Shown here: in pieces, positions 12,556 to 55,726 of the stretch
Numbering within the stretch: the stretch's first letter is position 1
How the letters are laid out: each line of letters begins with the position of its first letter
Assembly: GCA_902586855.1 (NCBI GenBank)
Contig: CACIIZ010000001.1
Coordinates: forward strand, 54,326 to 118,325
Length of the DNA: 64,000 nucleotides
Reading direction: 5' to 3'
Origin: an uncultured Alphaproteobacteria bacterium
GTDB taxonomy: Bacteria; Pseudomonadota; Alphaproteobacteria; Rhodobacterales; Rhodobacteraceae
Translations under genes and position numbers: made by a program
The notes under the pieces: generated by a model
What the model was told of the DNA's origin: nothing
Seen by the model: the letters and a program-made list of their open reading frames with translations, nothing else
Databases searched by the model: none

Positions 12556-12579
12556 CTTCCAACTACAATATGATATAGA

Positions 12580-12591
12580 TTTTGGTATAAT
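12580..12591 (+). promoter_or_regulatory. TTTTGGTATAAT box (extended -10-like), candidate promoter of the GlxA-type regulator
   Basis: TGGTATAAT matches the extended -10 consensus TGnTATAAT and lies 65 nt upstream of the GTG at 12656. The same motif recurs at 12631-12643, 15101-15117 (minus strand) and 33366-33380 (minus strand). Confidence 0.35.
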
Positions 12592-12630
12592 GCATCCATA
12601 TAAAAGACATTAAATTTCATGAAAAAGACA

Positions 12631-12643
12631 TTTTTGGTATAGT
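12631..12643 (+). promoter_or_regulatory. second copy of the T-tract + GGTATA box (TTTTTGGTATAGT)
   Basis: Direct repeat of the 12580 box, 51 nt downstream. A third GGTATAAT sits at 12647-12654, just before the start codon. Confidence 0.25.
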
Positions 12644-12655
12644 AAAGGTATAATT

Positions 12656-38791: not shown

Positions 38792-39838
38792 CTATAAATT
38801 ATTGTCCAAAATGTTTGATGCTACCTCACTAACGCTCTTTTTGCTGCAGGGATCAATTTTAATTTCATGAATTTCGCCTGGGGACCTCTGTGTTTTAGAG
38901 TTTTTATATCTAGGATCATAATGATTTTTCATTAGGGATTTTGCGAGCAGATGAAATTGGTTTTTCTGGACAAATTCTTTCCACGTTGTAATTTGTTTTT
39001 TGCTATGAAAATTGCTCAAAAGGGAAATTTTTTTTTGCAGTATCTTTGGATGCTCATATAAATCTGGATATTCCCGTACAAGAAATTCAGCCCGATCCCT
39101 AATTGTTGAAACTAATTCTAAACGGGGAGCTGTTGTCATTTTTTTCCACAGACTAGGTGGTATTTTTAAAATGCCAATTTTGCTCGATTCTGCCTCTAAG
39201 AAAACTGAGGTTTTTTCGGAAAAAGTTTCTAGTATTGCTGCTATTTTGCTTTCGAATTCTTTTTGCGATGGCTGGCCCAATGATCGTGACCCAAAAATTG
39301 AACCTCTATGATTGGCCAGTTCTTCAAGGTCAATAACCTGTCCTCCCAGGTCATCAATTTTTTTTAAGACAGCGGTTTTTCCAGTTCCAGTATTGCCAGA
39401 GATCACTACCATTTTATGGTTGATTCGTTTTTGGTAAAGTCTCGTCACTACCAATTTTCTGTAAGATTTGTATCCTCCTGCTAGGATATGTATTCTCCAA
39501 CCTATTTCAGATAGGACTACACCTAGAGATCGGGATCTTTGCCCGCCTCTCCAGCAATATATTAGTGCTTTCCATTGGTTCCCTTTCTCAGCCAAGATCC
39601 CACTTAGATGCTTACTAATATTATCAGCTACAAATTTTGCACCAATTTTCTTGGCTTCAAACTTGCTTTCTTGCTTGTAAATTTTTCCTACAACTTCACG
39701 TTCATGGTCTGACAAAACGGGTAGATTAACTGCGCCAGGAATATGATCTTCGGTGTACTCGCTTGGAGACCTAACATCAATAATCGTGTCGAATCTCTCA
39801 ACCGTTGTATTAGCAATGCTGAAATTTTCTATCTTCAT
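38792..39838 (-). CDS. selU: tRNA 2-selenouridine synthase (rhodanese + P-loop)
   Basis: 348 aa with the rhodanese active-site loop YCWRGGQRS and P-loop SGNTGTGKT. Convergent with selD and 7 nt away. Confidence 0.85.
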   Translation of the reverse strand: MKIENFSIANTTVERFDTIIDVRSPSEYTEDHIPGAVNLPVLSDHEREVVGKIYKQESKFEAKKIGAKFVADNISKHLSGILAEKGNQWKALIYCWRGGQRSRSLGVVLSEIGWRIHILAGGYKSYRKLVVTRLYQKRINHKMVVISGNTGTGKTAVLKKIDDLGGQVIDLEELANHRGSIFGSRSLGQPSQKEFESKIAAILETFSEKTSVFLEAESSKIGILKIPPSLWKKMTTAPRLELVSTIRDRAEFLVREYPDLYEHPKILQKKISLLSNFHSKKQITTWKEFVQKNQFHLLAKSLMKNHYDPRYKNSKTQRSPGEIHEIKIDPCSKKSVSEVASNILDNNL

Positions 39839-41743: not shown

Positions 41744-42781
41744 TTAAGCAAACTCAGGCATTACTTCTTCAATAAAAAGTTTGAGAGATTTTCGTTGCTC
41801 TTCTTGACCTAAGCCCATACTAGCATAATAGATGAATTCATCCACACCTAGACTTTCATAATCCTTTAATTTTTTAATAACTTCCTCAGGACTGCCAAAA
41901 AGTAGATTTTGGGCAAGCGTTTCTGGGTTATATTGATCTCTTCCTGCAAGTTCATTAAGTGGGATTTGCTTCGTAAATCCATTTTGAACATCACCAAGGT
42001 TTTTGAAAAGGTTCTCGAATTGTCCAAGAACTAACCGTATGGCCTTTAAGGCTTTTTCTTTGTCTTCTTCATTTGTATAAACGGCTGCATGTCTCATCAT
42101 TGCGAAGATGGGTCTAAAGTTTGATTGATTCGACTCAATCGCTTCTTCTAGTTGTTTTTTATAAAGTTCTGCCTCCGAAAATGGTCTGGTCAAGGGCCAT
42201 GACATGATGTTGCACTCGTTCTTGATAGCATAATCAAAGGTGATTGGTGATCTGGCCGCTACCCAGATCGGAGGATGCGGTTTTTGTATTGGTTTCGGAC
42301 AAGATGTGGATGCTGGAAATTGCCAATACTCACCATTATGCTCCACATCCCCTGACCATAACTGCTTTAACAAAGGTAGCATTTCTTGCATATACCTCCA
42401 GCCATCTTTCTGCTTCAAGCCTGGCTTCATCCGATCAAACTCTCGTTGATAGGCACCGGAACCAATTCCAAATTCCAACCTCCCTCCGCTAATTAGGTCT
42501 GTGAATGCAGCTTCCCCTGCCAAGTTAATAGGATGCCAATAAGCAGCATTAACCACTGCCGTTCCCAATCTTATTTTTTCTGTATGATTTGCCCACCAAG
42601 TCAATATTTGGAAAGGATTGGGTGCTATTGTCATTTCGATAGCATGATGTTCTGCAGCCCAAACGATGTTGAAGTTCCCCTGGTCAGCCATTGTTACCAT
42701 ATCGAGAGTATGTCTTTTTACGCTCTCCATATCAGTAGATGTGTCCATGCGTTCTAAATTGACAGCTAATTGAAACTTCAT
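41744..42781 (-). CDS. LLM-class (luciferase-like) flavin-dependent monooxygenase
   Basis: 345 aa, MKFQLAVNLE..., with typical LLM TIM-barrel sequence (AEHH, GRLEFGIGSG). GAGGAT SD. Last gene of the minus-strand operon. Confidence 0.85.
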   Translation of the reverse strand: MKFQLAVNLERMDTSTDMESVKRHTLDMVTMADQGNFNIVWAAEHHAIEMTIAPNPFQILTWWANHTEKIRLGTAVVNAAYWHPINLAGEAAFTDLISGGRLEFGIGSGAYQREFDRMKPGLKQKDGWRYMQEMLPLLKQLWSGDVEHNGEYWQFPASTSCPKPIQKPHPPIWVAARSPITFDYAIKNECNIMSWPLTRPFSEAELYKKQLEEAIESNQSNFRPIFAMMRHAAVYTNEEDKEKALKAIRLVLGQFENLFKNLGDVQNGFTKQIPLNELAGRDQYNPETLAQNLLFGSPEEVIKKLKDYESLGVDEFIYYASMGLGQEEQRKSLKLFIEEVMPEFA

Positions 42782-42857: not shown

Positions 42858-43460
42858 TTACACACCAGCTGGATTTTCCACATTTCTGCCTAGTTTTTTT
42901 AGGTCAGAATACCTGTCACCGATCCGATGATGGGGTCTACCACCTGTTGCTGCACCAAGTGCAGCAATCAATTCATCACCCGCTGGGGCATCTGGAATAG
43001 AAAATTGGACCGTCAGATAATGGGATCTCCGTCCGGTGTCGCTCTTGTCCATTAGTGGGATGTAAACTGGTGAGTTTGCTGGGCCTCGGGTATTAGTGAA
43101 GCCCAGATAAGATTTTGCTTGAACTGCCTCACGTAAAAAATTACCAAATTTCAGTGTGTGTATCAATGCCGAGGCATGCTCAATCTCAGAGTCTACGCCT
43201 GCCACGGCCGCCTTCCCATAGGCTTCTATCTCTGTGCCAGAACCTATTATCGAAATAAGCTTTTCTGTCAGAAGCTTTCCCAAAAAAGGAGAAATTCGAT
43301 TTATTTCAGGATATAGATCTTCCACAAAACCTTGCCCAATCCAAGGATTTTTTACGACTGCTGCAACACCTACTAACTTAAGTTCTTGGCTCGCTTGTTT
43401 TCCTCCTTCTACATTTATTATTTCTTCATATGCAATTATTTTTCTTATATCTGGTATCAT
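42858..43460 (-). CDS. amino-acid-synthesis (AA_synth, DUF-type) family protein of unknown biochemical function
   Basis: 200 aa with a GAGGGAG SD. The N-terminus IRKIIAYEEIINVEGGK and the overall size resemble the AA_synth family as I recall it; this needs HMM confirmation. Confidence 0.55.
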   Translation of the reverse strand: MIPDIRKIIAYEEIINVEGGKQASQELKLVGVAAVVKNPWIGQGFVEDLYPEINRISPFLGKLLTEKLISIIGSGTEIEAYGKAAVAGVDSEIEHASALIHTLKFGNFLREAVQAKSYLGFTNTRGPANSPVYIPLMDKSDTGRRSHYLTVQFSIPDAPAGDELIAALGAATGGRPHHRIGDRYSDLKKLGRNVENPAGV

Positions 43461-43486: not shown

Positions 43487-45577
43487 CTAAAAGACTTTTT
43501 TTACAGTGCCTTCCGTTTCATTTCCTTGATAAATTCCAAATCTCCCATGGTTATACTCTTCGCAATAGCGCTCAATCATTATTCTTTCTGCCAGATTTTT
43601 AATTTTGTGTAACGGTATCTTTTCTAGATTCAGGCTGACTGTTCTCTTATTACCTTTTCCTGAAAATTTCCCATGGTAGAAGATCATATGGGCATTGAGC
43701 TCTTGATCTTCATACACCGAATATAGGAAATCAAGATTAAATATTAGATTCAAGTCTTTTAGATGCTGTTTTAATCCACTTAGACTTTTGTTACTAGTTG
43801 GGGCTTTTGGCAATGACAAGGAGCCATTCTTATCCTTAATAAACAGAATGTGACGATCGCTTTCCAAGATCGCTCCGACTCCTGTATCACTTCCTTCATT
43901 AACCATTTTTACTAGAGAGTGCTCTAACCCTATAGAAAAATAATCACCACGAAAATAGCCAAGAGGATCACCAGATTGATGGAAAAACTCTTCAACATGA
44001 CCAATCATTACAGCGTGATCCCCTATTTCTTGGAAGTTAGTTTTTTGGCATACAAAGTTGGACAAGCACGAGTCCAATAGGGGTAGATTCCCTGTCCCCT
44101 TTTTCCATTTAGTTAAATCAAATTTGTCAGATCTTTGAGATGAGAATAATCCTGCTAAAGAACGCTGTTTTTTACTCAAAACATTGATTACAAAATGGTT
44201 GCTATTTCTAAAGATCTCAAAACTTTGAGCGGTCTTGGCGATGCAAACCAATAACATAGGCGGATCCAGAGAAACAGACGAAAAAGAATTTGCAGTGAAA
44301 CCTCTGGGGGTGCCATCATCTTGTGTTGTAGTCACAACTGTAACGCCCGTGGCAAAAGTTCCAAAGGCAGATCTAAGGTCATTTTTGCCTTCTTCAGTTA
44401 TTTGATTAAATTCATTTTTATAAAAGTCTTCTGCTTTTGTAAGTCCCAATTCTGGAGGATGAGAGAATTTAGGTTGAGGAAATCTACTAAAGTTAAGTGG
44501 ATTTCCCGCTATTCGCCATGGTCTAGATTCTGGATTTGCATGTTTAATTTCCTTTATCATTGATCTTTTGGCAACATGAGGGTCCTTAAATATATCTTTT
44601 GCTGAATTAAGAGTACCAAATGGTACTAATCCGCCTAAAAGAGATTTCAATTCTGATTTTGTTTTTGTCAAAGTCCAGCATCCCACTATTTCATTTAATG
44701 CTTGAGAGTTTTTTTGCCTGCTCGTAATTGAAGAGTATTTTGGATCAGAGGATAGCTCTGGTTTTTCCATTATTTCAGTTAAAATTTTCCAAAATGAATC
44801 ATCTACTATTCCTAGAGCTATAAAACCATCTCTGGCCTTGAAGATCCCAAAAGGTACTAGCAAAGGGTGTCCATTCCCTTCTGGCTTGGGGATAGAACCA
44901 TCCAGGTCGTGTTGATAAATTATTCTTTCGCAAAGACTGATTACGGCATCATACATTGCCAGATCTATGAATTGTCCCTTTCCCGATTTTTCCGACTCTC
45001 TTACTGCAGCTATGATACCAAAAGCCATCATAAGACCTGAGAATATATCTCCAACACCTGGCCCTACTTTTGTAGGAGTGCTTTGGCTGGGTCCTGTTAT
45101 ACTCATAAGTCCACCCATTGCTTGGGCGACGACATCGTAGGATGGCCAATCCATATAAGGGCTTTCCCCAGAAATTGGATTACCAAATCCACTTATGGCA
45201 GCATATACTAATTTTTTATTTACACCTTTTAGATTTTCATATCCCAATCCCATTTTTTCCATGACTCCAGGTCTGAAATTTTCAACCAAAATATCAGCTG
45301 TCTTGACAAGGTTTATGAGACTTTCTTTACCCTGAGGAGTTTTTAAGTCTAGCATTAAGCTTTTCTTGTTTCGATTGAGACTTACAAAATATCCAGACCA
45401 TTTCTTTTTCTTGTCTTCTTTTCTAAAAGGGCCGGTTCCTCTACTGGTATCACCGGAGGGGGGCTCAATTTTAATTACTTCTGCACCATGATCAGCTAAC
45501 ATCATTGTACAATAGGGACCTGAAAGCATTCGTGTTAAATCTAAAACCCGAAGGCCTGATAATAGTCCTTGAGTCAT
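43487..45577 (-). CDS. three-domain fusion: family III (CaiB/BaiF) CoA-transferase + flavin reductase (FMN-binding split barrel) + ~140-aa C-terminal domain of uncertain (Nudix-fold-like?) type
   Basis: About 696 aa from the ATG at 45577, which lies 1 nt after the upstream stop (TAGAATG). N-terminus: LRVLDLTRMLSGPYCTMMLADHGAEVIKIE. Middle: FGTFATGVTVVTT...PRGFTANSFSSVSLDPPMLLVCI. C-terminus: VGAILESDRHILFIKDKNGSLSLPK... Confidence 0.8.
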   Translation of the reverse strand: MTQGLLSGLRVLDLTRMLSGPYCTMMLADHGAEVIKIEPPSGDTSRGTGPFRKEDKKKKWSGYFVSLNRNKKSLMLDLKTPQGKESLINLVKTADILVENFRPGVMEKMGLGYENLKGVNKKLVYAAISGFGNPISGESPYMDWPSYDVVAQAMGGLMSITGPSQSTPTKVGPGVGDIFSGLMMAFGIIAAVRESEKSGKGQFIDLAMYDAVISLCERIIYQHDLDGSIPKPEGNGHPLLVPFGIFKARDGFIALGIVDDSFWKILTEIMEKPELSSDPKYSSITSRQKNSQALNEIVGCWTLTKTKSELKSLLGGLVPFGTLNSAKDIFKDPHVAKRSMIKEIKHANPESRPWRIAGNPLNFSRFPQPKFSHPPELGLTKAEDFYKNEFNQITEEGKNDLRSAFGTFATGVTVVTTTQDDGTPRGFTANSFSSVSLDPPMLLVCIAKTAQSFEIFRNSNHFVINVLSKKQRSLAGLFSSQRSDKFDLTKWKKGTGNLPLLDSCLSNFVCQKTNFQEIGDHAVMIGHVEEFFHQSGDPLGYFRGDYFSIGLEHSLVKMVNEGSDTGVGAILESDRHILFIKDKNGSLSLPKAPTSNKSLSGLKQHLKDLNLIFNLDFLYSVYEDQELNAHMIFYHGKFSGKGNKRTVSLNLEKIPLHKIKNLAERIMIERYCEEYNHGRFGIYQGNETEGTVKKVF

Positions 45578-45578
45578 T

Positions 45579-46397
45579 CTAGGTAGACCCAACTTTAATG
45601 AATTGTTGTAAAAACGGTTTGATGATAGATCCGAATTGATTTGGATCCTCCACCAATCCCATATGCTTTAAATTTCTCATAATTAAAAGCTGGCTCTGGT
45701 TGATTTCATTTGCTATCATTTTACTCATTTCCGGTCCATTGCCGTAATCTTGATCTGCTGTAACCACTAAAGTTGGACAGTTGATTGGTGGTTGAGGTTT
45801 TATAATCTCTTCTAAATCATAAGCCAAGATCTTATAGATTTTTGGGTATATATTAGGATCATTGGCAACAATCCATTTTCTAACTTTATTAATTATTCTA
45901 GGATTATCTTTTTCAAATTTTTCACTGAACCATCTAGTAATTGCATCTGACACAGTGGCTTTAGGTCCAAATCTTTGGGATAGTGTAACTCTGGCCTCTA
46001 TTGAGGATTGCTGCTCTTTGGTTCGAGAGTGGGGGGAGTTTATTATTATTAGACCTTCCACTAATTCAGGAAAATCCTGCGCAAATCGTCTGACTATCAT
46101 TCCGCCTAAGGAAAATCCTGCCAAGATTATTTGTTTGAAGTTACAGTAATCCATCAACTCCTTTATTTGCAAAGAAAACATTTTTAGGGAGGGGGTTTTT
46201 TCGGGTAAGATGCTTCCTCCATGTCCACAAAGATCGTAGGTCACTATGGTAAATTCTTCTTCTAGATTTTTGGGTAGCCATTGCCACATTTCCCTATTCA
46301 AACCTAGACCATGAACAAAAATAAGAATTTTTTGTGGAGACAATCCCCTTATTTCAAACTTGGTTCCTTTGGTAGTAATAGATGATATTTTTGTCAC
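45579..46397 (-). CDS. alpha/beta-fold hydrolase
   Basis: 272 aa with a GTG start and AGGTG SD. HGLGLN oxyanion region and nucleophile elbow GFSLGG. Confidence 0.8.
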   Translation of the reverse strand: MTKISSITTKGTKFEIRGLSPQKILIFVHGLGLNREMWQWLPKNLEEEFTIVTYDLCGHGGSILPEKTPSLKMFSLQIKELMDYCNFKQIILAGFSLGGMIVRRFAQDFPELVEGLIIINSPHSRTKEQQSSIEARVTLSQRFGPKATVSDAITRWFSEKFEKDNPRIINKVRKWIVANDPNIYPKIYKILAYDLEEIIKPQPPINCPTLVVTADQDYGNGPEMSKMIANEINQSQLLIMRNLKHMGLVEDPNQFGSIIKPFLQQFIKVGST

Positions 46398-46404
46398 TTC
46401 ACAC

Positions 46405-46797
46405 CTAGGAAAATTTTTGAGGCTTGTAGGCTATTACTTCTATTTCTACCTTCACATCTACTAACAACTCATTTACTAAGGCAGACCTAGCCGGAGGGTC
46501 ATCAGGGAAGTATTCACTATAGATTTTATTAAAACCTGGGAAATCATTTTTGTCCTTAAGCCATACCATTGATTTGACCACGTCATCCAGTGTGCAATTT
46601 GCCAAGGAAAGGGTGTTTCTAATTTCTTCAATTACAGCTCTGGTTTGTTCTTCTATTCTTCCGCTCGTCATTACCGCTCCGTTTTTCATGGGGACTTGTC
46701 CTGTGCAAAAAATGAAATCACCGGCTTGTACAGCTCGTGAAAGAGATAACTCTCTTCCATTAATTATAAAGGGCTCCCCCAAGACTTTTTTTTTCAT
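46405..46797 (-). CDS. RidA/YjgF-family enamine/imine deaminase-like protein
   Basis: About 130 aa, YjgF-like (GQVP..., ...VEIEVIA). The ATG at 46797 has an AAGGTG SD; the track GTG at 46806 is an alternative. Confidence 0.8.
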   Translation of the reverse strand: MKKKVLGEPFIINGRELSLSRAVQAGDFIFCTGQVPMKNGAVMTSGRIEEQTRAVIEEIRNTLSLANCTLDDVVKSMVWLKDKNDFPGFNKIYSEYFPDDPPARSALVNELLVDVKVEIEVIAYKPQKFS

Positions 46798-46869
46798 ATC
46801 GTTCACCTTCTAAACGGTTCTACGCTGTTAAAAGAAGTTTATTTCTAAAATCCTCAAAAAAAGCGTACA

Positions 46870-46928: not shown

Positions 46929-48410
46929 ATGACTGAAGTCAAAAAATATCAAATGCTTATTAATGGAAGCTGGACTAGCGGAATGGATAAAAAGTTTTTT
47001 GATAGTGTGAATCCGTATACAGGTCAGGTGTGGTGTAGGGTACCTGAGGCAAGTTCCAAAGATGTAGATGCTGCAGTGAGGGCTGCACATAAGGCTTTTA
47101 CAACCGGAGCTTGGGCTAAAATGACCCCAACCCAGAGAGGAGTTTGTTTAAGAAGGCTCGCAGATTTACTTTCTGAAACGTCAGAGCCTTTAGGTAAAAT
47201 AGAAACCATTGATACTGGGAAAATGCTTAAGGAAACGCGATGGCAGGCAAAGTATATTGCAGAGTTTTTTCACTTCTACGCTGGGTGCGCCGACAAAATT
47301 AGTGGGGAAACTTTGCCAATAGATAAACCTGACCTGGTTGTCTTCACGGAAAGGGAACCATTGGGGGTGGTTGCTGCAGTTGTCCCATGGAATTCTCAAT
47401 TATTCTTAGTTGCAGTTAAATTAGGACCTGCTCTTGCAGCTGGAAATACTGTGGTGCTTAAGGCTTCGGAGCATGCATCTGCAGCAATGTTAGAGTTTGG
47501 TAAACTTATTGAAAAGGCAGGATTTCCAGCTGGAGTTGTAAATATTATTACTGGTCACGGCGACCCGTGTGGAAGGGAATTGACATCCCATCCTTTGGTT
47601 TCGCGTATTTCCTTTACTGGGGGACCAAGGTCAGCACAAAGTATTATAAGAAATTCTTCTGAGAACTTTGCAGAAGTATCACTTGAATTAGGAGGTAAAT
47701 CACCTTTCATAGTTTTTGATGATGCAAATTTAGAAAGTGCTGTGAACGGATCCATTGCTGGAATTTTTGGTGCTACAGGTCAAAGCTGTGTAGCAGGGTC
47801 AAGATTATATTTGCACGAAAAAATTGCTGATGAATTTCTGGAAAAAATGTTACGAATTGTTCAAACCATTAATTTAGGTGATCCCCTTGAGGAGAAAACT
47901 CAAATGGGACCCTTATGCACGATGGGACAAATAGAAAATATTGAAACTGAATTAAGAGAAGCCCAATCTCAAGGTGGCGAGCTTTTATGTGGGGGTGGTA
48001 GACCTGAAAATTTAGAAGGTCATTTTTTTCAACCTACTATAATTTCTTGCCCCGACCAGTCCTTAAAAATTGTGGACACTGAGCTTTTTGGCCCTGTGTT
48101 GAGCGTATTAACTTTCCGAGAGGAAGAGGAGGCAATCAATCTTGCCAACGATACGAAGCATGGGCTGGCTGCTGGTATATTTAGCGAAAATAGTGCGCGA
48201 TCTATGCGAGTTGCGAAGTCGGTTAGGGCTGGTATAGTATGGGTAAACACGTATAGGGTAGTATCGCCCATAGCGCAGTTTGGGGGCTTTAAAGGTTCCG
48301 GTTATGGACGGGAAAGTGGTTTTCAAGCCATGTATGACTATACGCGTCCAAAAACCATCTGGTTGAATACATCAAATGAGCCAATGAGTAATCCTTTTGT
48401 AATGCGCTAA
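46929..48410 (+). CDS. NAD(P)-dependent aldehyde dehydrogenase
   Basis: 493 aa with ELGGKSP and catalytic Cys context GQSCVAGSR. GGAGG SD. Confidence 0.9.
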   Translation: MTEVKKYQMLINGSWTSGMDKKFFDSVNPYTGQVWCRVPEASSKDVDAAVRAAHKAFTTGAWAKMTPTQRGVCLRRLADLLSETSEPLGKIETIDTGKMLKETRWQAKYIAEFFHFYAGCADKISGETLPIDKPDLVVFTEREPLGVVAAVVPWNSQLFLVAVKLGPALAAGNTVVLKASEHASAAMLEFGKLIEKAGFPAGVVNIITGHGDPCGRELTSHPLVSRISFTGGPRSAQSIIRNSSENFAEVSLELGGKSPFIVFDDANLESAVNGSIAGIFGATGQSCVAGSRLYLHEKIADEFLEKMLRIVQTINLGDPLEEKTQMGPLCTMGQIENIETELREAQSQGGELLCGGGRPENLEGHFFQPTIISCPDQSLKIVDTELFGPVLSVLTFREEEEAINLANDTKHGLAAGIFSENSARSMRVAKSVRAGIVWVNTYRVVSPIAQFGGFKGSGYGRESGFQAMYDYTRPKTIWLNTSNEPMSNPFVMR

Positions 48411-48448: not shown

Positions 48449-49252
48449 GTGACCCATGGTATAGAAGTAAAAAAGTCAGGAAAAGTACTAGAAGTTTGTC
48501 TCGATAGACCAAAGGTTAATGCGATTGATGTAAAAATGAGTCAAGAATTAGGCAAAGCTTTTGCTGAACTGAGAGATAATAATGACTTGTGGGTAGGGAT
48601 CTTAACAGCTCAAGGAGACAAGATTTTTTCAGCAGGTTGGGACCTTAAAGCTCTAAACTCTGGGGAAATGTCTTTAGAAAATTGGTGGGAAACTTCAGAT
48701 TATGGAGATGGAGGTTTTGCTGGTTTAACTGAAAACTGGGATTTGAATAAGCCAGTCATTGGTGCTTTAAATGGCTTGGTAATAGGGGGTGGTTTTGAAT
48801 TGGCACTAGGCTGTGATCTTTTAATTGCAGCTGAACATGTTGAATTTGGTTTGCCTGAGATGCCTCTCGGTATAGTGCCGGATGCAGGTGCTCTTCAACG
48901 CCTGCCACGAAGAATACCCTATAACATAGCCATGGAAATGTTCTTGTTGGGGCGTAGAATGTCTGCTGCTGAGGCAAAGCACTATGGTCTTATAAATAAA
49001 ATAGTAAAATCTGAAAATCTGTTAGATGAAGCTCGCGAGTGGGCGAGTCAGATCGCCTCGTCAGCTCCTTTGGCCATGCAAAGTGTGAAAGAAGTGTTGA
49101 GAGCAATAGAATGTCATCCATTAGAGTCGGCTTTTTCCAAGATGCGAAAAGATGACCTAGAAACTTATAAAAAAATGCTGAGTTCTAAGGATGCAGAAGA
49201 AGGTATAGCGGCGTTTGTTGAGCGGCGAGCCCCCAAGTTTAAGGGTGAGTGA
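48449..49252 (+). CDS. enoyl-CoA hydratase/isomerase (crotonase) family protein, CaiD-like
   Basis: 267 aa with a GTG start and AAGGAGAAAG SD. Crotonase motifs: FSAGWDLK and GGGFELALGCDL. Confidence 0.85.
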   Translation: MTHGIEVKKSGKVLEVCLDRPKVNAIDVKMSQELGKAFAELRDNNDLWVGILTAQGDKIFSAGWDLKALNSGEMSLENWWETSDYGDGGFAGLTENWDLNKPVIGALNGLVIGGGFELALGCDLLIAAEHVEFGLPEMPLGIVPDAGALQRLPRRIPYNIAMEMFLLGRRMSAAEAKHYGLINKIVKSENLLDEAREWASQIASSAPLAMQSVKEVLRAIECHPLESAFSKMRKDDLETYKKMLSSKDAEEGIAAFVERRAPKFKGE

Positions 49253-50199
49253 TGAAGCTAATTGATCTAAGTAGCGTAGAGAGGGTTTGTAGCATTGGAG
49301 GTGGTCCAATAGGGGCTGGTTGGGCAGCCTTTTTCTTATCGAAGGGTCTTTCCGTAAAGGCTTATTTACATTCAGAAAGAGAGGAAGACAGCTTTCGGTC
49401 AATGATTGACACAGCCTGGATCTCGTTAGAGAAATTAACTGATCTAGTCAATGTCAACCTAGATTTAATACAAGTAAGCACAGACCTAGACGATGCTGTT
49501 CAAGATGCCGACTTCATTCAAGAAAGTGCCCCAGAAATTTTATCCTTAAAACAAGATCTTTATAATCATTTAGGAAAAATTGTTCGCAGTGACGTTGTGA
49601 TTTGTTCCTCCACTTCCGGTTTGACAATGTCGGAAATCCAGGCGCATTGTCAAACAGCTGAGAGAACGGTAGTTGCTCATCCATTCAACCCACCATATTT
49701 ACTACCGTTGGTAGAAATAGTGGGAGGAAAGAAGACCAATCCAGAGGCGGTTGACTGGGCGAAAAACTTTTATGAACGTATCGGTAAAGTTCCTTTAGTC
49801 ATGAACAAAGAAATTCCTGGCTTTATTGCCACAAGACTACAAGAAGCTTTGTGGAGGGAGGCATTACACATGGTAGTTAATGAAGAGGCAACTCCAGAGC
49901 AAATAGACAAAGCTCTGATTAATGGTCCTGGCCCCAGACTGGCAATTCAGGGGCAATGTCTTGCATTTCATGTTGCTTGTGGAGAAGGAGGTATGGCCAC
50001 TAACTTAGATCAATTTGGACCCGCTTTAAAACTACCTTGGACAAGATTGCATGCTCCTAAATTGACGAAGAAATTAAGAGACTCAATGGTTTTAGGCTGT
50101 AATGATATGACCAAAGACCAGGACTTTCAAAGCCTTGCCCTTGAACGGGATAGGAAGATAGTGGAGATTTTAAAAGTACAAAAAACAAATGCTTCTTAA
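49252..50199 (+). CDS. 3-hydroxyacyl-CoA-dehydrogenase-fold NAD enzyme, L-carnitine dehydrogenase-like
   Basis: About 315 aa. The N-terminus IGGGPIGAGWAAFFLSKGLSV resembles the LcdH / L-gulonate 3-dehydrogenase subgroup (GxGxIGxxWA). A BKACE gene follows directly. TGATG overlap with the upstream gene. Confidence 0.65.
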   Translation: MKLIDLSSVERVCSIGGGPIGAGWAAFFLSKGLSVKAYLHSEREEDSFRSMIDTAWISLEKLTDLVNVNLDLIQVSTDLDDAVQDADFIQESAPEILSLKQDLYNHLGKIVRSDVVICSSTSGLTMSEIQAHCQTAERTVVAHPFNPPYLLPLVEIVGGKKTNPEAVDWAKNFYERIGKVPLVMNKEIPGFIATRLQEALWREALHMVVNEEATPEQIDKALINGPGPRLAIQGQCLAFHVACGEGGMATNLDQFGPALKLPWTRLHAPKLTKKLRDSMVLGCNDMTKDQDFQSLALERDRKIVEILKVQKTNAS

Positions 50200-50232
50200 T
50201 TTGCTGAGATTAAATTGAATAGGGAGGTTGGC

Positions 50233-51120
50233 ATGAACTTTGAAGTGGTTATTACATGTGCGGTTACAGGTGCTGGAGACACGGTAGGCAAGAGTGATAA
50301 GGTTCCAATTACCCCTAAAGAAATAGCAAATGAAGCATTATCTGCTGCCGAAGCTGGAGCCACGTCAGTGCATTTACATGTTAGAGACCCTGAAACTGGG
50401 AAAGGTTCAAGAGATCCTAAGCTTTTCAAAGAAACTATCGATAGACTACGTGACAATAAACAAGACGTAATAATTAATCTTACAGCTGGGATGGGTGGTG
50501 ATTGGGTTGTTAACCCCAACAACCTAATTGAACCGGGACCTGGTACAGATATGATTAATGCTGAGGAAAGGTTGGCACATGTTAAGGAATGTTTGCCAGA
50601 GATTTGTTCTATAGATTGTGGAACTATGAATTTTGGAAACGATAACGAGATTTATATTTCAACTCCGCCATTTTTGAGGCAGATGGCACAATTAACTCAA
50701 GAGTGGGGTGTGAAACCTGAGCTAGAGGTTTTTGATCTCGGGCATATCCGTTTTGCTAAGGAAATGATTAAAGAGGGGCTGGTTGACGAGCCTCCTTTAT
50801 TTCAAATTTGTTTAGGAATTCCTTGGGGAGCTGAACAATCTGTTGATACGATGAAAATTATGAAAGATCATTTGCCGGCAAACTGTTTTTGGGCAGGATT
50901 TGGTATTTCCCGTATGCAAATGCCTATGGTAGCCGCTGCCGTGACTTTAGGAGGAAATGTTCGGGTGGGACTAGAGGACAATTTATACCTAAAAAAAGGA
51001 ATACTGGCTTCGAATGCAGATCTGGTTATTAATGCTAAAAACATTGTTGAACTTATGGGTGGTAGAGTTCTAACCCCAGAGGAAGCAAGGAAAAAGTTTC
51101 AACTGAAAAAGCAAGCCTAG
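50233..51120 (+). CDS. beta-keto acid cleavage enzyme (BKACE; 3-keto-5-aminohexanoate cleavage family, DUF849)
   Basis: About 295 aa from the ATG at 50233. ITCAVTGAGDT and SVHLHVRDPETG are typical of BKACE TIM barrels. Confidence 0.8.
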   Translation: MNFEVVITCAVTGAGDTVGKSDKVPITPKEIANEALSAAEAGATSVHLHVRDPETGKGSRDPKLFKETIDRLRDNKQDVIINLTAGMGGDWVVNPNNLIEPGPGTDMINAEERLAHVKECLPEICSIDCGTMNFGNDNEIYISTPPFLRQMAQLTQEWGVKPELEVFDLGHIRFAKEMIKEGLVDEPPLFQICLGIPWGAEQSVDTMKIMKDHLPANCFWAGFGISRMQMPMVAAAVTLGGNVRVGLEDNLYLKKGILASNADLVINAKNIVELMGGRVLTPEEARKKFQLKKQA

Positions 51121-51153: not shown

Positions 51154-52314
51154 TTGGATCAAGTGACCAGCTCAGAAAATTCCCTTCTGCTGATGACTGT
51201 TAGTAAGTTCTTGGAAGAAGAAATTTTACCACATGAAGATGAAGTTGATAAGACTGGTGAAGTTAGTCCAGACTTAGGAAGACAAATTGAAACACGAGCC
51301 AAAGAGGTGGGCTTGTTTGCTGCCAATCTGCCAGTTGAAGTTGGAGGAGGAGGTTTGGATTATCGTTCTATGATGGTCTTGGAGAGGGAGTACGGAAAAA
51401 CTTCCCATGCATTGCACTCCTGGATTGCCCGACCTACTGAAATTTTACTTGCTTGTAATGAAGAGCAAAGAGAAGAGTTTCTATATCCTTGTGTTAAGGG
51501 AGATAAGAGAGAATTATTTGCCCTCACTGAACCAGGAGCTGGTTCGGATGTCATGGGAATGAAATCAAATGCTGTAAAAAACGGTGATGATTGGATTTTG
51601 AATGGGTCTAAGCACTTCATATCTGGACCGTGTATGCCTCATTTTGCGATTGTTTTTGCTGTGACTGGAGAGGACAAGACAAAAAGAGGTGTCCGCAAAA
51701 GAATTACTGCTTTTTTGGTTAATCGAGGAGAAAAAGGGTTTGATATAAGGGAGGGAACTAAATGCGTCAGTTATCGTGGATACAAAACTTTTGCACTAAA
51801 CTTCAATGATGTAAGACTTTCCAAGAGAATGGTTCTCGGAAAAGAAGGGGAAGGATTAAAGCTTTCTGGTAAATGGCTGGGTATGGGACGCATATGGGTT
51901 GGTGCTTCCTGTTGTGGGAAGGCTGAACGTATGATTAAGTTGGCATCGGAGTGGGCTGCCGATAGAAAGCAATTTGGACAACCTATTGGGAAATTTCAAG
52001 GAATAGGCTTTCGTCTAGCTGACATGGCAGTAGGGCTAAAAGCAGCAGATTTAATGGTCCATGACGCTGTAGATAAAGCAGAAAATAAAATCATGAAAGA
52101 TGAGGATGCAGCTATGGTAAAGCTTTTTTGCTCAGAGATGGTTAATAAGGTTGCTGACGATACTGTTCAAATATTTGGTGGAATGGGTCTAATGGAAGAA
52201 ATGCCCATCCAAAGATTATGGAGAGATAGCCGCCTAGAGAAAATTTGGGATGGTACATCGGAAATACAGCGACATATAATTGCCAGATCGATACTGCGAC
52301 CTCTCGGGGCATGA
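51154..52314 (+). CDS. acyl-CoA dehydrogenase family protein (CaiA-like position)
   Basis: 386 aa with a TTG start and AAGGAGGAAG SD. ALTEPGAGSD, QIFGGMG and a C-terminal EIQRHIIAR. Confidence 0.9.
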   Translation: MDQVTSSENSLLLMTVSKFLEEEILPHEDEVDKTGEVSPDLGRQIETRAKEVGLFAANLPVEVGGGGLDYRSMMVLEREYGKTSHALHSWIARPTEILLACNEEQREEFLYPCVKGDKRELFALTEPGAGSDVMGMKSNAVKNGDDWILNGSKHFISGPCMPHFAIVFAVTGEDKTKRGVRKRITAFLVNRGEKGFDIREGTKCVSYRGYKTFALNFNDVRLSKRMVLGKEGEGLKLSGKWLGMGRIWVGASCCGKAERMIKLASEWAADRKQFGQPIGKFQGIGFRLADMAVGLKAADLMVHDAVDKAENKIMKDEDAAMVKLFCSEMVNKVADDTVQIFGGMGLMEEMPIQRLWRDSRLEKIWDGTSEIQRHIIARSILRPLGA

Positions 52315-54407
52315 GACTAAATCAAACTAAAAACTTAGGTCGATTATTAAGACCCTCACAAATTGCTTTCGTTGGCGGTTCTGACGCGGAGGTGGCAATT
52401 AATGAAGCAATAAGACGTGGGTTTTCGGGATCGATCTGGCCCGTAAATCCCTCTCGAGATCATATGGCTGGCTATAAATGCTTTAAATCGGTTTTAGATT
52501 TGCCATTCGGGCCAGACGCTGTTTTTCTTGCTATTCCTGCCAAAAAGGTTTTGAAAACCATAAATGAACTTCGTGAAGTCTCAGCAGGTGGAATCGTGTG
52601 CTACACGGCTGGATTTCGGGAGATAGGAGAAACGGGTTTTTTGATTGAAAAGGAACTTGTAAAAGACCTAGGCGACATGGTTATGGTTGGTCCAAATTGT
52701 TATGGGGTGATCAATTATTTGGAGGAATATGCTCTGTGGCCCTTTGCACATGGTGGATTTTGTCCAGGTTATGGGGCAGCGATAATTACGCAGAGTGGAA
52801 TGCTTTCTTCCGATATCACTATGAGTCAAAGATCTTTGCCTTTAACACACATGATATCCTTGGGTAACCAGGCTTCCTTAAAGAGTGCTGATTTCATAAA
52901 GTACTTAAGTACCTCTAGGCCAGTTAGGGCATTTGGACTTCACATCGAGAGTATAGAAGATATACAAGATTTCGAGATGGCCGCATTGAAAGCATTGAAA
53001 GCGAACAAACCCATCGTAGTTTTAAAAACAGGAACTTCCCAAATAGGGGCTAATCTCACCAAAAGTCATACGGGATCATTTGCTGGCTCAAATGAAATTT
53101 ACAACGCTTTATTTGAGCGATTAGGAATAATTACCGTTAGCACGCCATCAGAATTAATTGAAACTCTTAAGTTTATCTGTATCTCGGGTATTCCAAGAGG
53201 GAAGAAATGTGCAGCTTTTACTTGTTCTGGTGGTGGAGCGACTCTCGTAGCGGATTTTGGAGAAAAATTAGGTCTAGAATTCCCAGGTTTTTCATCATTT
53301 GATTCAGGAATTGTTTCTAAGCTTTTGCCCAGTATAGCAACAGTATCTAACCCACTAGACTATACCACACCAATTTGGGGAAAGAAAGAATTCACCAAGC
53401 CACTTTTTGCGAATGTTTTAGAAAAATTAGAGGTGGATTGTACCTTGATTGTGCAAGACTATCCTCTCAAGGGGCTTGATGATACAAAAGTACATTATTT
53501 AACAGATGGAAAAGCTTTTTCTGAAGCAGCTTCAGAAAAAAGAATTCCTGGTGCAATTGTCTCAACAATATCGGAAAATATAGATGAGCAGACACGAAAT
53601 ACGTTTCTGTCCAAGGGCATTGCTCCCTTACAAGGTTTAGCAGACTCCCTTCAAGCCATATCCAAAGCGGGTTCATGGGATCTTAATAGAAAGAAGATTT
53701 TAGGTAGAAATAACCTGCCTTTGTTTCCTAGTGCTCCCTTAAAAAACTTATCTTACGTCGATGAATGGGAGGCTAAGACTTTAATCTCTGAAGAAGGTGT
53801 GTGCATCCCAAAAGGAGTAAAGTCTGCAGTTGAAAATATAATGGAGAGCGCAAATAAAATTGGGTTTCCGCTTGCGGTGAAACTATTGAGCAAAGATCTA
53901 CTCCATAAAACTGAACTGGGGGCAGTGCATTTAAATATCAGAAACGAACTGGAGCTAAGAAGATCGGTAATGAAAATCAGGTATAATCTAGAACGCTACC
54001 AAGACAAATATGATGTAAATTCCTTCTTATTAGAAGAAATGGTTCCCAAGCCTATATGTGAATTAATTGTAGGTATTAGACGTGACCCACACTTTGGTCT
54101 TGTCCTAACACTAGGTTCTGGGGGGGTTTTTGCTGATTTAATCAACGATTACCAGTTGCTACTTTTGCCTGCCCAGCGGAAGGAAATTTTCCAAAAGATT
54201 ATGTTATTAAAGGTTGGAAAGATTATAGCTGGTTATAGGGGACTTATAGGATCTAACTCAAATATGGTGGTCGATTGCATTGACAAGTTGGTCATGTTCG
54301 TTTCAAAAAAGGGTTCTAGAATTGCAGAACTTGAAATTAATCCTCTGTATGTCTTTGAAGAAAAGGTCATAGCCATTGATACCCTGTTGGCAAGAGAACA
54401 ATCATAA
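52311..54407 (+). CDS. ADP-forming acyl-CoA synthetase family protein (CoA-binding + succinyl-CoA-synthetase-like + ATP-grasp domains)
   Basis: About 698 aa from the ATG at 52311 (ATGA overlap with the ACAD stop). N-terminus LLRPSQIAFVGGS is the CoA-binding fold, and the C-terminus is ATP-grasp (FPLAVKLLS...HKTELGAV). The track's N-terminal extension is out of context. Confidence 0.8.
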   Translation: MRLNQTKNLGRLLRPSQIAFVGGSDAEVAINEAIRRGFSGSIWPVNPSRDHMAGYKCFKSVLDLPFGPDAVFLAIPAKKVLKTINELREVSAGGIVCYTAGFREIGETGFLIEKELVKDLGDMVMVGPNCYGVINYLEEYALWPFAHGGFCPGYGAAIITQSGMLSSDITMSQRSLPLTHMISLGNQASLKSADFIKYLSTSRPVRAFGLHIESIEDIQDFEMAALKALKANKPIVVLKTGTSQIGANLTKSHTGSFAGSNEIYNALFERLGIITVSTPSELIETLKFICISGIPRGKKCAAFTCSGGGATLVADFGEKLGLEFPGFSSFDSGIVSKLLPSIATVSNPLDYTTPIWGKKEFTKPLFANVLEKLEVDCTLIVQDYPLKGLDDTKVHYLTDGKAFSEAASEKRIPGAIVSTISENIDEQTRNTFLSKGIAPLQGLADSLQAISKAGSWDLNRKKILGRNNLPLFPSAPLKNLSYVDEWEAKTLISEEGVCIPKGVKSAVENIMESANKIGFPLAVKLLSKDLLHKTELGAVHLNIRNELELRRSVMKIRYNLERYQDKYDVNSFLLEEMVPKPICELIVGIRRDPHFGLVLTLGSGGVFADLINDYQLLLLPAQRKEIFQKIMLLKVGKIIAGYRGLIGSNSNMVVDCIDKLVMFVSKKGSRIAELEINPLYVFEEKVIAIDTLLAREQS

Positions 54408-54553: not shown

Positions 54554-55726
54554 ATGAGAGCATTTGAGGGAATTCGTGTACTAGATCTCACCCATGTATT
54601 TGCGGGCCCTTTTTGTACCTTTCAACTGGCAGTGATGGGTGCAGATGTCATAAAGATCGAATCGCCTCATTTTCCTGACATGATGAGAGATGAAGGGAAC
54701 TCAGAAGCTTTAAACAGTTTGGGGCTAAGCAACTTTTTTGTTTGTCAAAACAGCGAAAAAAAATCACTCTCTCTTGATTTGGAATTAGGTAGTGACAGAA
54801 AAGTTTTTCTGAAATTGGTGAAAACGGCTGACGTATTAGTCCAAAATTATTCTGGTAAGGCTATGGAAAGATTAGGTTTATCTTATGAAAAACTTAAAAT
54901 AATTAATCCTAAACTCATCTATTGTTCCATGACTGGATTTGGTCAGACAGGACCAAAGGCAGAAGACCCAGCCTATGATTCAGTAATACAAGCCTATTCT
55001 GGTTTGATGGAACTAAACGGTCTTAAAAGTACTGGTCCAATGCGTGTAGGGCCTGCTATAGTTGATTACGGTACGGGCATTCATGCAGCATTTGCCATCT
55101 CATCGGCTCTCTACAGGCGGACAGTTACGGGAGAAGGATTAGAGATTGATCTTTCAATGTTGGATGCTGCTTTAATGCTTATGACCTCTACAGTATCAGA
55201 CTGTTTAGCTTCTGGGATCTCTCAGCCAAATCACGGTAACAACCACCCAGATTATGCAGGGTATGGAACTTATGCTGCAAAGGATAGAATGATTATGATA
55301 GGTGCCTTTACAAAAAGGCAGTTAAATAATTTGTTTCTAGCGTTAGGATTGAAGGAGCAGGCGGGACAAGTTTCTGGCATGAAAAAATCAGAAATCAAAG
55401 AAAATAATTCTAGATTTAGATTTCTCATAGAGAAAGTAATAGAAACCAAAACTGCAGATCATTGGGAGACTAAGCTGAATTCTTTCCATGTGCCAGCAGC
55501 CAAAGTTCGCACGTTAGTGGAAGCATTAAGGAGTGATCAAATAAGATCTAGGAGAGTGTTGCAAAATTCTTTTCTAACGGAAGCCCCTTGTCATCCGAAG
55601 GTCTTGCCTGTCGCAGCTTTTTCCTATTCGAAGGGGTCTCCAGAAATTACTAGAGCAGCTCCAAGAATTGGGAGAGATAATGTAAAAATCATTAAAAATG
55701 CAAGTGATTCTCTCAAGAAAATATAA
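54554..55726 (+). CDS. family III (CaiB/BaiF) CoA-transferase
   Basis: 390 aa with IRVLDLTHVFAGPFCTFQLAVMGADVIKIE and the later GPAIVDYGTG region. Confidence 0.85.
   Translation: MRAFEGIRVLDLTHVFAGPFCTFQLAVMGADVIKIESPHFPDMMRDEGNSEALNSLGLSNFFVCQNSEKKSLSLDLELGSDRKVFLKLVKTADVLVQNYSGKAMERLGLSYEKLKIINPKLIYCSMTGFGQTGPKAEDPAYDSVIQAYSGLMELNGLKSTGPMRVGPAIVDYGTGIHAAFAISSALYRRTVTGEGLEIDLSMLDAALMLMTSTVSDCLASGISQPNHGNNHPDYAGYGTYAAKDRMIMIGAFTKRQLNNLFLALGLKEQAGQVSGMKKSEIKENNSRFRFLIEKVIETKTADHWETKLNSFHVPAAKVRTLVEALRSDQIRSRRVLQNSFLTEAPCHPKVLPVAAFSYSKGSPEITRAAPRIGRDNVKIIKNASDSLKKI

Follow-up and report, generated by a model that had tools for sequence, protein, structure and literature searches.

Within a 64,000-nucleotide stretch of DNA from an uncultured Rhodobacteraceae bacterium (GenBank assembly GCA_902586855.1, contig CACIIZ010000001.1; analyzed whole and called the window here), one gene on the minus strand encodes a 696-amino-acid (aa) protein that joins a family III coenzyme A (CoA)-transferase to a flavin reductase and a degenerate Nudix-fold tail. 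It is a real gene fusion that is common in marine Alphaproteobacteria, and it is not an artefact. We consider it likely, judging from sequence, that the product is a bifunctional enzyme derived from two fused operon genes, and that it would serve a single integrated pathway in which a ring opening like that of the trigonelline (Tgn) and Rut systems is combined with CoA-dependent steps. The surrounding gene cluster probably acts on trigonelline or on a pyridinium betaine related to it, which would be handled in part as CoA esters.

The open reading frame (ORF), for which the initial annotation gave no strand, runs uninterrupted over 43487..45592 of the minus strand, and in the ORF listing an ATG at 45577 gives the 696-aa product. 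Two complete Pfam domains lie in this frame: CoA_transf_3 (PF02515; residues 6-378, E = 1e−119, 400 bits versus a cut-off of 23.3, profile positions 1-363 of 366) and Flavin_Reduct (PF01613; residues 406-549, E = 1e−37, 129.7 bits versus a cut-off of 27, profile positions 2-152 of 153). The reductase domain also matches the NCBIfam models of the p-hydroxyphenylacetate hydroxylase C1 reductase, HsaB, StyB, and RutF, all under their cut-offs, and residues 550-696 have no Pfam match. The three-part layout read from the letters in the initial annotation is therefore borne out by the ORF listing and by Pfam. The ATG of the fusion lies 1 nt past the stop codon of an alpha/beta hydrolase gene (TAG-A-ATG), while 3′ of the fusion's own stop codon there is a Shine-Dalgarno-like AGAGGGAG and, after 26 nt, a gene of the PF06684 family.

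Proteins with the same architecture (692-719 aa, 52-80% identity) form more than 120 protein clusters. The carriers include the isolates Shimia gijangensis, Sulfitobacter brevis, and Roseovarius spongiae, the closed chromosome of Roseovarius sp. Pro17, and a plasmid of Parasedimentitalea marina. The identical protein is present on a 125-kb NCBI contig, and the nearest genomes in a contig scan were an uncultured alphaproteobacterial single-amplified genome (SAG; 79%) and a Rhodobacteraceae metagenome-assembled genome (MAG; 76%). Public records annotate the fusion proteins only as "CoA transferase." Stop codons do occur at the first junction in some homologous loci (L026, L092, and L093) and at the second in others (L074, L076, L077, and L099), as would be expected if a frameshift or a mis-join of separate genes had produced a continuous ORF by assembly or sequencing error. 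The initial annotation had named such stops as a sign of an artefact, but they reflect natural gene fission and fusion. Given that the clusters come from independent isolates, MAGs, SAGs, and closed replicons, that 42 of 69 metagenome loci with an orthologous CoA-transferase have the tri-domain ORF, and that coding constraint extends over all three domains (dN/dS-type measures), we assign an artefact practically no chance.

The split and partial forms also indicate how the fusion arose. A search with the CoA-transferase domain alone retrieved standalone orthologues of 390-410 aa (58-66% identity), located between the hydrolase and the reductase of the cluster, and very abundant tail-less CoA-transferase-reductase proteins of 557-566 aa (n = 752 in one 90% cluster). 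At L026, the gene order is RidA, hydrolase, CoA-transferase (396 aa), reductase (167 aa, no tail), and PF06684, and the CoA-transferase and reductase genes, which overlap by 4 nt, together fill exactly the slot of the fusion. The CoA-transferase and the reductase share one ORF at 14 of the 69 metagenome loci, nine of which have no tail match at all. At four of the 14 (L074, 1907-2272; L076, 11695-12060; L077, 11686-12051; L099, 4173-4538), a tail ORF in another frame follows a CoA-transferase-reductase ORF of 579 aa; these metagenome contigs are independent of one another, and in each the tail looks like a small gene of its own. L052 has a frameshift within the reductase. Three of the 69 loci were scored as having the CoA-transferase apart from the reductase. 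In two of them (L092 and L093), it lies in a different frame from the reductase and tail, with a stop/start overlap at the linker position, as in L026. In the third (L083), both matches are in the same frame and there is no tail; this locus looks more like a truncated tail-less fusion. Because split and tail-less variants occupy the same slot, we conclude that a stop codon was lost between translationally coupled neighbors and that the tail is optional in the pathway. The fusion event is thus an ordinary one, a stop codon lost between overlapping operon genes.

The tail belongs to the reductase and not to the CoA-transferase, because the two-domain module exists on its own in PDB entry 3rh7 and occurs fused to a hydrolase in the compact tgn-like clusters described below. 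The 3rh7 protein aligns colinearly with residues 399-694 (E = 3e−54). This match reproduces the domain order of the TgnA/SMa0793-type two-domain reductases, and the fusion also has the neighbors of that type, namely a luciferase-like flavin-dependent oxygenase (LLM), an aldehyde dehydrogenase (ALDH), an alpha/beta hydrolase, and a PF06684 protein. A profile of the tail searched against 1.84 billion representatives finds 394 proteins at E ≤ 1e−3, in all of which the tail is C-terminal. The best 150 of the 394 comprise 73 reductase-tail proteins (median, 313 aa), 10 hydrolase-reductase-tail proteins, 4 CoA-transferase-reductase-tail proteins, and 60 tail-only sequences (median, 159 aa), which are probably for the most part contig-end fragments. 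In tblastn searches, the reductase-tail module was present at a query coverage of at least 80% on 325 plasmids, mostly rhizobial and Burkholderiaceae. Matches on Acinetobacter plasmids, considered as stand-ins for TgnA, were rejected; they cover the reductase domain only and are generic reductases. When the literature was queried for the fusion, for 3rh7, and for the catabolism of trigonelline in the sea, nothing on the fusion protein or its cluster came up. The claim that the architecture had not been described therefore stands for the papers searched and falls for public data, in which it is abundant; the C-terminal half is pre-existing and, as 3rh7, structurally solved.

The AlphaFold2 (AF2) model of residues 552-696 has a predicted local distance difference test (pLDDT) score of 86.6 and a predicted template modeling (pTM) score of 0.80, and it yielded 242 Foldseek matches in the PDB at E ≤ 1e−3. 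The top 50 matches listed consist of Nudix hydrolases, domains with the Nudix fold (3cng, 2yyh, NUDT6, NudC, AtNUDT7, and the MutY C-terminal domain, among both kinds), and the C-terminal domain of 3rh7 (5e−8 for 3cng; TM score of 0.72 for 3rh7). At the sequence level, the tail profile matches 3rh7 at 6e−27 and the genuine Nudix hydrolase 3cng at 1e−6, so the relationship to Nudix proteins is one of homology as well as of shape. The Nudix box of 3cng (RETLEEAN) aligns with KQHLKDLN of the tail (family consensus, kaaLkalg), from which we conclude that the catalytic glutamates are gone; the profile alignment with 3cng has no conserved acidic residue at the box position of the tail, and the Pfam model NUDIX (PF00293) does not match the tail even at E ≤ 10. 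The tail thus has the Nudix alpha/beta/alpha fold and lacks the box GX5EX7REUXEEXGU with its metal-binding glutamates, in agreement with what had been noticed from the letters on both counts. We suggest that the tail is an optional accessory of the reductase, which probably binds a nucleotide (NAD(P)H or an ADP-ribose moiety) or an effector.

Sequence conservation differs sharply between the domains and the linker that connects the first two. Across 120 homologues, the mean identity to the query is 63% for the CoA-transferase, 57% for the reductase, 43% for the tail, and 8.8% for the linker, the length of which varies from 17 to 23 aa. Nei-Gojobori counts against L001 and L002, at which synonymous sites are saturated, gave proportions of nonsynonymous differences (pN) of 0.10-0.13, 0.10-0.12, 0.12-0.18, and ~0.40, respectively. 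These values indicate purifying selection on all three domains and an almost neutral linker. In the full-length AF2 monomer (pLDDT of 76, pTM of 0.47), the domains are confident and both junctions have low pLDDT (~53 in the linker); with the low pTM, this means that no fixed inter-domain arrangement is predicted. The active-site loops of the CoA-transferase, an obligate dimer, are poorly modeled in the monomer, and the full-length model was left out of the fold search.

These data bear on the functional proposal of the initial annotation, namely that the fusion channels substrate or that a CoA ester controls flavin reduction, with the tail as a sensor of CoA or a nucleotide. Pseudo-Nudix domains that bind ligands typically keep the fold and lack the catalytic residues, as this tail does, the Foldseek matches include the NAD(H)-related Nudix enzymes NudC and AtNUDT7, and purifying selection acts on the tail. 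However, 83 of the 87 classifiable multi-domain representatives among the best 150 of 394 have the tail without a CoA-transferase, and the same cluster contains tail-less CoA-transferase-reductase fusions and split pairs. Because the tail travels with the reductase and such tail-less fusions exist, a CoA-binding or CoA-sensing role for it is unlikely. Neither channeling nor CoA-ester control is indicated, since the modules are split at either junction elsewhere and the linker is unconserved, and we find the whole model quite improbable. The variable partners, the split and tail-less forms, the neutral and variable linker, and the absence of confident inter-domain packing favor instead a simple fusion of operon genes.

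The CoA-transferase domain appears catalytically intact. Its Asp148 aligns with the aspartate of the YD..QA motif in Frc-like 10uh, YfdE (4hl6), and CaiB/BaiF (4ed9), which we take to be the family III nucleophile (Asp169 in Frc), and it is invariant in 52 homologues. Family III CoA-transferases are interlocked obligate homodimers and could as such serve as a scaffold, although nothing specific speaks for the domain being a catalytically dead scaffold or oligomerization module for the reductase. We regard such a role as highly improbable: the CoA-transferase is the most conserved part of the protein, its many invariant columns include Asp148 and the YDVVAQAMGG motif, its pN is low, and its standalone orthologues occur in the same operon slot.

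The best NCBIfam match of the domain is succinyl-CoA:mesaconate CoA-transferase (Mct; 405 bits versus a cut-off of 700). Other equivalogs scored 265 versus 750 (succinate-glutarate CoA-transferase), 261 versus 504 (Frc), 244 versus 522 (YfdE), and 136 versus 413 (CaiB). PDB matches are to Frc, YfdE, and SUGCT, and the fused domain shares 44% identity with a haloarchaeal Mct. Outside the cluster, its nearest standalone paralogues (45-55% identity; Tistrella, Variovorax, and Pseudosulfitobacter, three contexts inspected) lie among genes for MmgE/PrpD, MaoC, acyl-CoA dehydrogenase (ACAD), MaoC, the CoA-transferase, and a CoA-ester lyase, with a tripartite ATP-independent periplasmic (TRAP) or ATP-binding cassette (ABC) transporter adjoining. 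This pattern of matches points to an acceptor of the C4/C5-dicarboxylate type. The ring-opened intermediate of the Tgn pathway is a substituted methylenesuccinate, and it would fit as the acceptor. An alternative, CaiB-like role in a gamma-butyrobetaine-type route is suggested by the neighbors resembling CaiD, carnitine dehydrogenase, and beta-keto-acid cleavage enzyme (BKACE), all below cut-offs.

The fusion gene lies in a minus-strand operon (RidA, hydrolase, fusion, PF06684, LLM) that faces a plus-strand series of ALDH, enoyl-CoA hydratase (ECH), 3-hydroxyacyl-CoA dehydrogenase-like protein (HADH), BKACE, ACAD, nucleoside-diphosphate (NDP)-forming acyl-CoA synthetase, and a second CoA-transferase (Table 1). 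The Tgn families reductase, LLM, hydrolase, and PF06684 are thus present, together with one ALDH only and with additional genes of a CoA module. The best NCBIfam matches of the neighbors are CaiD (292 bits), L-carnitine dehydrogenase (289 bits), and BKACE, all below cut-off. NCBIfam has no Tgn models, and the cluster proteins match only generic families there at sub-threshold scores.

Table 1. Features of the fusion gene and of the surrounding gene cluster (positions in the window)
Feature	Position	Strand	Basis or remark
Whole fusion gene	43487..45577	minus	696 aa + stop codon
Family III (CaiB/BaiF) CoA-transferase domain, residues 6-378	44444..45562	minus	Pfam PF02515
Asp148 codon, motif WPSYDVVAQAMGG	45134..45136	minus	Predicted catalytic aspartate
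Inter-domain linker, residues 379-399 (21 residues)	44381..44443	minus	Low identity, high pN, low pLDDT
HpaC/RutF-type short-chain flavin reductase domain, residues 400-549	43931..44380	minus	Pfam PF01613
Degenerate Nudix-fold C-terminal domain, residues 552-696 (145 aa)	43490..43924	minus	AF2, Foldseek, profile matches
Helix at the Nudix-box position, residues 599-608 (SGLKQHLKDL)	43754..43783	minus	Without catalytic glutamates
RidA/L-PSP family gene, first of minus-strand operon	46405..46806	minus	Pfam, NCBIfam
Alpha/beta hydrolase gene	45579..46397	minus	Stop 1 nt before fusion ATG
PF06684 (AA_synth/DUF1185) gene, TgnF family	42858..43460	minus	Pfam
Luciferase-like (LLM) flavin-dependent oxygenase, presumed reductase partner	41744..42781	minus	Pfam
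Aldehyde dehydrogenase, first of divergent operon	46929..48410	plus	
CaiD-like enoyl-CoA hydratase	48449..49252	plus	
3-Hydroxyacyl/carnitine-dehydrogenase-like dehydrogenase	49249..50199	plus	
BKACE beta-keto-acid cleavage enzyme	50215..51120	plus	
Acyl-CoA dehydrogenase	51154..52314	plus	
NDP-forming acyl-CoA synthetase	52245..54407	plus	ORF as listed; true start probably further downstream
Second, standalone family III CoA-transferase	54554..55726	plus	40% identical to fused domain

We propose that the C-terminal half of the fusion is a TgnA/SMa0793-type NAD(P)H:flavin reductase with a catalytically dead Nudix-fold domain, and that it would supply reduced flavin to the LLM oxygenase encoded two genes downstream. 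For the N-terminal half, which would be catalytically intact, we propose a family III CoA-transferase of the dicarboxylate (mesaconate/itaconate) type. By making or exchanging the CoA thioester of an acid in the pathway, it would serve the CaiD-like hydratase, the hydroxyacid dehydrogenase, and BKACE of the divergent operon. The cluster as a whole would catabolize trigonelline or a related N-heterocyclic betaine by an oxygenolytic ring opening of the Tgn/Rut type followed by CoA-dependent steps, and the fusion itself may serve only equimolar co-expression and co-localization.

The conserved cluster comprises ~11 genes (10-11), with ACAD and the synthetase present or absent. In this extended form and with the fusion, it is also found in L001, L003, L008, L010, L021, L023, and L025, in two gene orders. 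Of the 27 metagenome loci that extend at least 9 kb upstream, all have ALDH, 26 have the hydrolase, 25 have LLM, 24 have ECH, 24 have HADH, and 20 have BKACE. The extended-cluster proteins of marine Rhodobacterales and soil Aminobacter are 46-78% identical. Because each of the two divergent operons contains "Tgn-like" as well as "CoA" genes, and because the gene set survives rearrangement, the data argue for one integrated pathway rather than two neighboring ones.

Two independent pathways might nevertheless share the island, a Tgn-like ring opening and a route of the gamma-butyrobetaine/crotonobetaine/carnitine type, with the fused CoA-transferase as the CaiB of the latter and the fusion as a neutral accident. 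The CaiD, L-carnitine dehydrogenase, and BKACE matches of the neighbors agree with this, as do the presence of ACAD and an NDP-forming synthetase, a GlxA (CdhR-like) regulator at several loci, and MttB-family genes near the L021 and L026 clusters. Yet the CoA-transferase gene has the hydrolase on one side and the reductase on the other, LLM and ALDH are grouped with ECH and HADH, and the genes are kept together not only through rearrangement but also across orders. The CoA-transferase, moreover, scores far higher against Mct than against CaiB, and the scores against carnitine enzymes are all below cut-off. We therefore judge a pair of independent pathways unlikely and retain the integrated pathway as our explanation.

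The link to trigonelline comes from a second, compact form of the cluster. It consists of genes for a GntR regulator, a PF06684 protein, an alpha/beta hydrolase, the reductase with its tail, LLM, and ALDH; the full set occurs in Ruegeria sp. B32 and Mesorhizobium amorphae, and the Sinorhizobium meliloti pSymA record lists only the reductase, LLM, and ALDH. In M. amorphae (plasmid pM0123d; L005, 7086-8873), the hydrolase and the reductase are themselves fused, in a 595-aa protein of alpha/beta hydrolase, flavin reductase, and Nudix-like tail. Perchat et al. reportedly described, in 2018, the two-component trigonelline oxygenase TgnA/TgnB and the tgn cluster of Acinetobacter baylyi ADP1. TgnB is a luciferase-like monooxygenase (PMC11354265), and TgnF, which stimulates the succinate-semialdehyde dehydrogenase TgnE, belongs to PF06684 (PMC7913881). 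The families of the compact cluster are those reported for the Tgn system, and this correspondence links it to trigonelline catabolism. In Joint Genome Institute (JGI) records, some LLM proteins, from a cluster with 74% identity to the window LLM, are called [quoted passage not shown] and several fusion proteins are named after the product of tgnD, "(E)-2-((N-methylformamido)methylene)succinate hydrolase." We suspect that the latter naming stems from hydrolase-reductase fusions among the reference sequences. A search for LLM homologues returned generic names only, the trigonelline names being confined to one 90% cluster. The window hydrolase is 46-47% identical to its extended-cluster orthologues and 25% identical to the compact tgn-like hydrolases; an NCBIfam comparison of the two hydrolase lineages gave the same PcaD-like matches for both and did not discriminate between them. 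PF06684 proteins of the extended and compact clusters are 61-64% identical.

Several observations weigh against the proposed role of the fusion in a trigonelline-type pathway. Every NCBIfam equivalog score of the cluster proteins is below its cut-off, and the Tgn link is indirect, resting on family composition, secondary citations, and names in the style of KEGG orthology (KO). Between the extended and compact clusters, identities are 25% for the hydrolase, 37-40% for LLM, 39% for the reductase with its tail, and 52% for ALDH; at such values, the substrate may differ. Aminobacter has the extended cluster without a CoA-transferase in the block, L020 has the four-gene operon only, and in an abundant lineage (L022; P0093, in 77 blocks of the assembly collection) the fusion lies away from the cluster, near a formamidase/AmiR system. 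The monomer AF2 model is also still compatible with inter-domain contacts in an oligomer. The substrates that we considered were trigonelline, N-substituted nicotinates, side-chain-extended pyridinium acids, gamma-butyrobetaine-like betaines, and arecaidine-type tetrahydropyridines, among which sequence alone selects none. The homarine (hom) operon, which encodes HomA (~230 aa, FAD-binding) and HomB (~570 aa), is a different system and was rejected as a counterpart.

Individual loci show further variation in gene content. The neighbors of the fusion in L022 are a 395-aa protein of the periplasmic-binding family (AmiC-like), an AmiR/ANTAR regulator, an FmdA/AmdA formamidase, and a peptide-type ABC transporter, a context that may hint at formamide or N-methylformamide metabolism. 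At L017 (5338-9041) and L024 (10001-13004), the orthologous LLM stands beside a Rieske-type oxygenase (Ring_hydroxyl_A), without ECH, HADH, BKACE, or CoA-transferase, and the L024 variant also has a thiamine pyrophosphate (TPP) enzyme and a CMD-family protein. The MttB-family (PF06253) methyltransferase genes lie a few kilobases from the clusters, at 13171-14724 in L021 (Shimia) and at 16367-17824 in L026 (a 1.2-Mb metagenome contig). Non-pyrrolysine relatives of MttB demethylate quaternary amines. In the closed genome of Roseovarius sp. Pro17 (L010), the PF06684 gene is called at 108 aa (12323-12649; possibly truncated) and the RidA gene is missing, so that this cluster may be decaying. On pSR3 of Aminobacter sp. 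SR38 (L004, 9897-15140), the unfused extended cluster is directly followed by a block of MmgE/PrpD, ACAD, CoA-transferase, MaoC, CoA-ester lyase, and electron transfer flavoprotein genes. The block resembles the clusters of the nearest CoA-transferase paralogues, and its CoA-transferase is only 30% identical to the fused domain; a link to C5-dicarboxylate metabolism is possible.

Elsewhere in the window, a third family III CoA-transferase gene that, like the second, is standalone (62355-63479, minus strand) brings the count to three in 20 kb. Another fusion, a 714-aa ORF at 36640-38784 (plus strand), combines pyridine-nucleotide-disulfide oxidoreductase and AIR-synthase-related (SelD-like) domains. 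Beside it lies a rhodanese-domain ORF (38792-39838, minus strand), whose syntenic counterpart in L023 has Rhodanese and AAA_SelU domains. The two may form a selenium-utilization pair.

The fusion is a convenient marker for the conserved gene cluster, which is very common in marine metagenomes; the oxygenase cluster was found on more than 140 contigs. Among the nitrogenous osmolytes that derive from phytoplankton, trigonelline and homarine are abundant, and to our knowledge trigonelline catabolism has been worked out only in soil Acinetobacter. The homarine pathway was described only in 2026 (PMC13236597). The cluster combines a Tgn/Rut-type ring opening with CoA steps, and the identity of its substrate would add a route to the cycling of marine dissolved organic nitrogen. 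We tentatively conjecture, with less confidence than we place in the bifunctional enzyme itself, that the fusion could mark an undescribed CoA-thioester-dependent ("hybrid") aerobic pathway for a pyridinium betaine, be it trigonelline or a relative. It would form a branch alongside the hydrolytic Tgn route and would be widespread among marine Rhodobacterales and related groups. In such a pathway, the dicarboxylate-type CoA-transferase would activate the substrate or its ring-opened, methylenesuccinate-like product, the TgnA-type reductase and LLM would open the ring, and the crotonase, dehydrogenase, and BKACE would finish the carbon skeleton. The degenerate Nudix domain of the reductase is also of interest as an uncharacterized pseudoenzyme module with a solved structure (3rh7), for which the natural tail-less and split variants offer ready-made controls.

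Among known systems, the closest to the C-terminal half of the fusion is SMa0793 of S. meliloti 1021, the protein of 3rh7, which was deposited by structural genomics as a "putative oxidoreductase." It likewise consists of a flavin reductase and a degenerate Nudix-fold domain, and it differs in being a standalone protein of 321 aa without a CoA-transferase (~26-37% identity). A homologue on another S. meliloti pSymA adjoins LLM and ALDH genes in a compact cluster. The C1 reductase of p-hydroxyphenylacetate hydroxylase from Acinetobacter baumannii (PDB 5zc2) belongs to the same Pfam family and also has an extra C-terminal domain, which regulates the reductase. The C1 match covers the reductase part only, however (profile positions 9-169 of 309), and the C-terminal domain of C1 has no match to the Nudix-like tail.

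For the N-terminal half, the nearest counterparts are the Mct/itaconate/C5-dicarboxylate-type CoA-transferases, which it resembles in its best NCBIfam score and in the clusters of its paralogues, and from which it departs in scoring below the Mct cut-off and in its operon context. The route from gamma-butyrobetaine, crotonobetaine, and carnitine to glycine betaine through CaiB/CaiD and carnitine dehydrogenase/BKACE draws on the same families as the window locus (family III CoA-transferase, crotonase, short HADH-type dehydrogenase, BKACE, ACAD, and NDP-forming synthetase). In the window, all scores remain below the equivalog cut-offs, including the 136 bits for CaiB, and the genes are intermixed with those of the oxygenase pathway.

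At the level of the whole cluster, the Rut pyrimidine pathway (RutA, an LLM; RutF, a flavin reductase; RutC, a RidA-family protein; RutD, an alpha/beta hydrolase) follows the same logic, in which an LLM served by a separate flavin reductase opens an N-heterocycle and RidA and a hydrolase handle the enamine or imine product. The NCBIfam matches to RutF, RutC, and RutD are weak and far below their cut-offs, and the window cluster is unlike Rut in having no RutB or RutE and in having additional CoA-dependent enzymes and a PF06684 protein. With the tgn cluster of A. baylyi ADP1, compared by family composition, it has in common the flavin reductase, LLM, ALDH, alpha/beta hydrolase, and PF06684 protein. 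To this set it adds RidA, the fused CoA-transferase, the CaiD-like hydratase, the hydroxyacid dehydrogenase, and BKACE, with or without ACAD and the synthetase.

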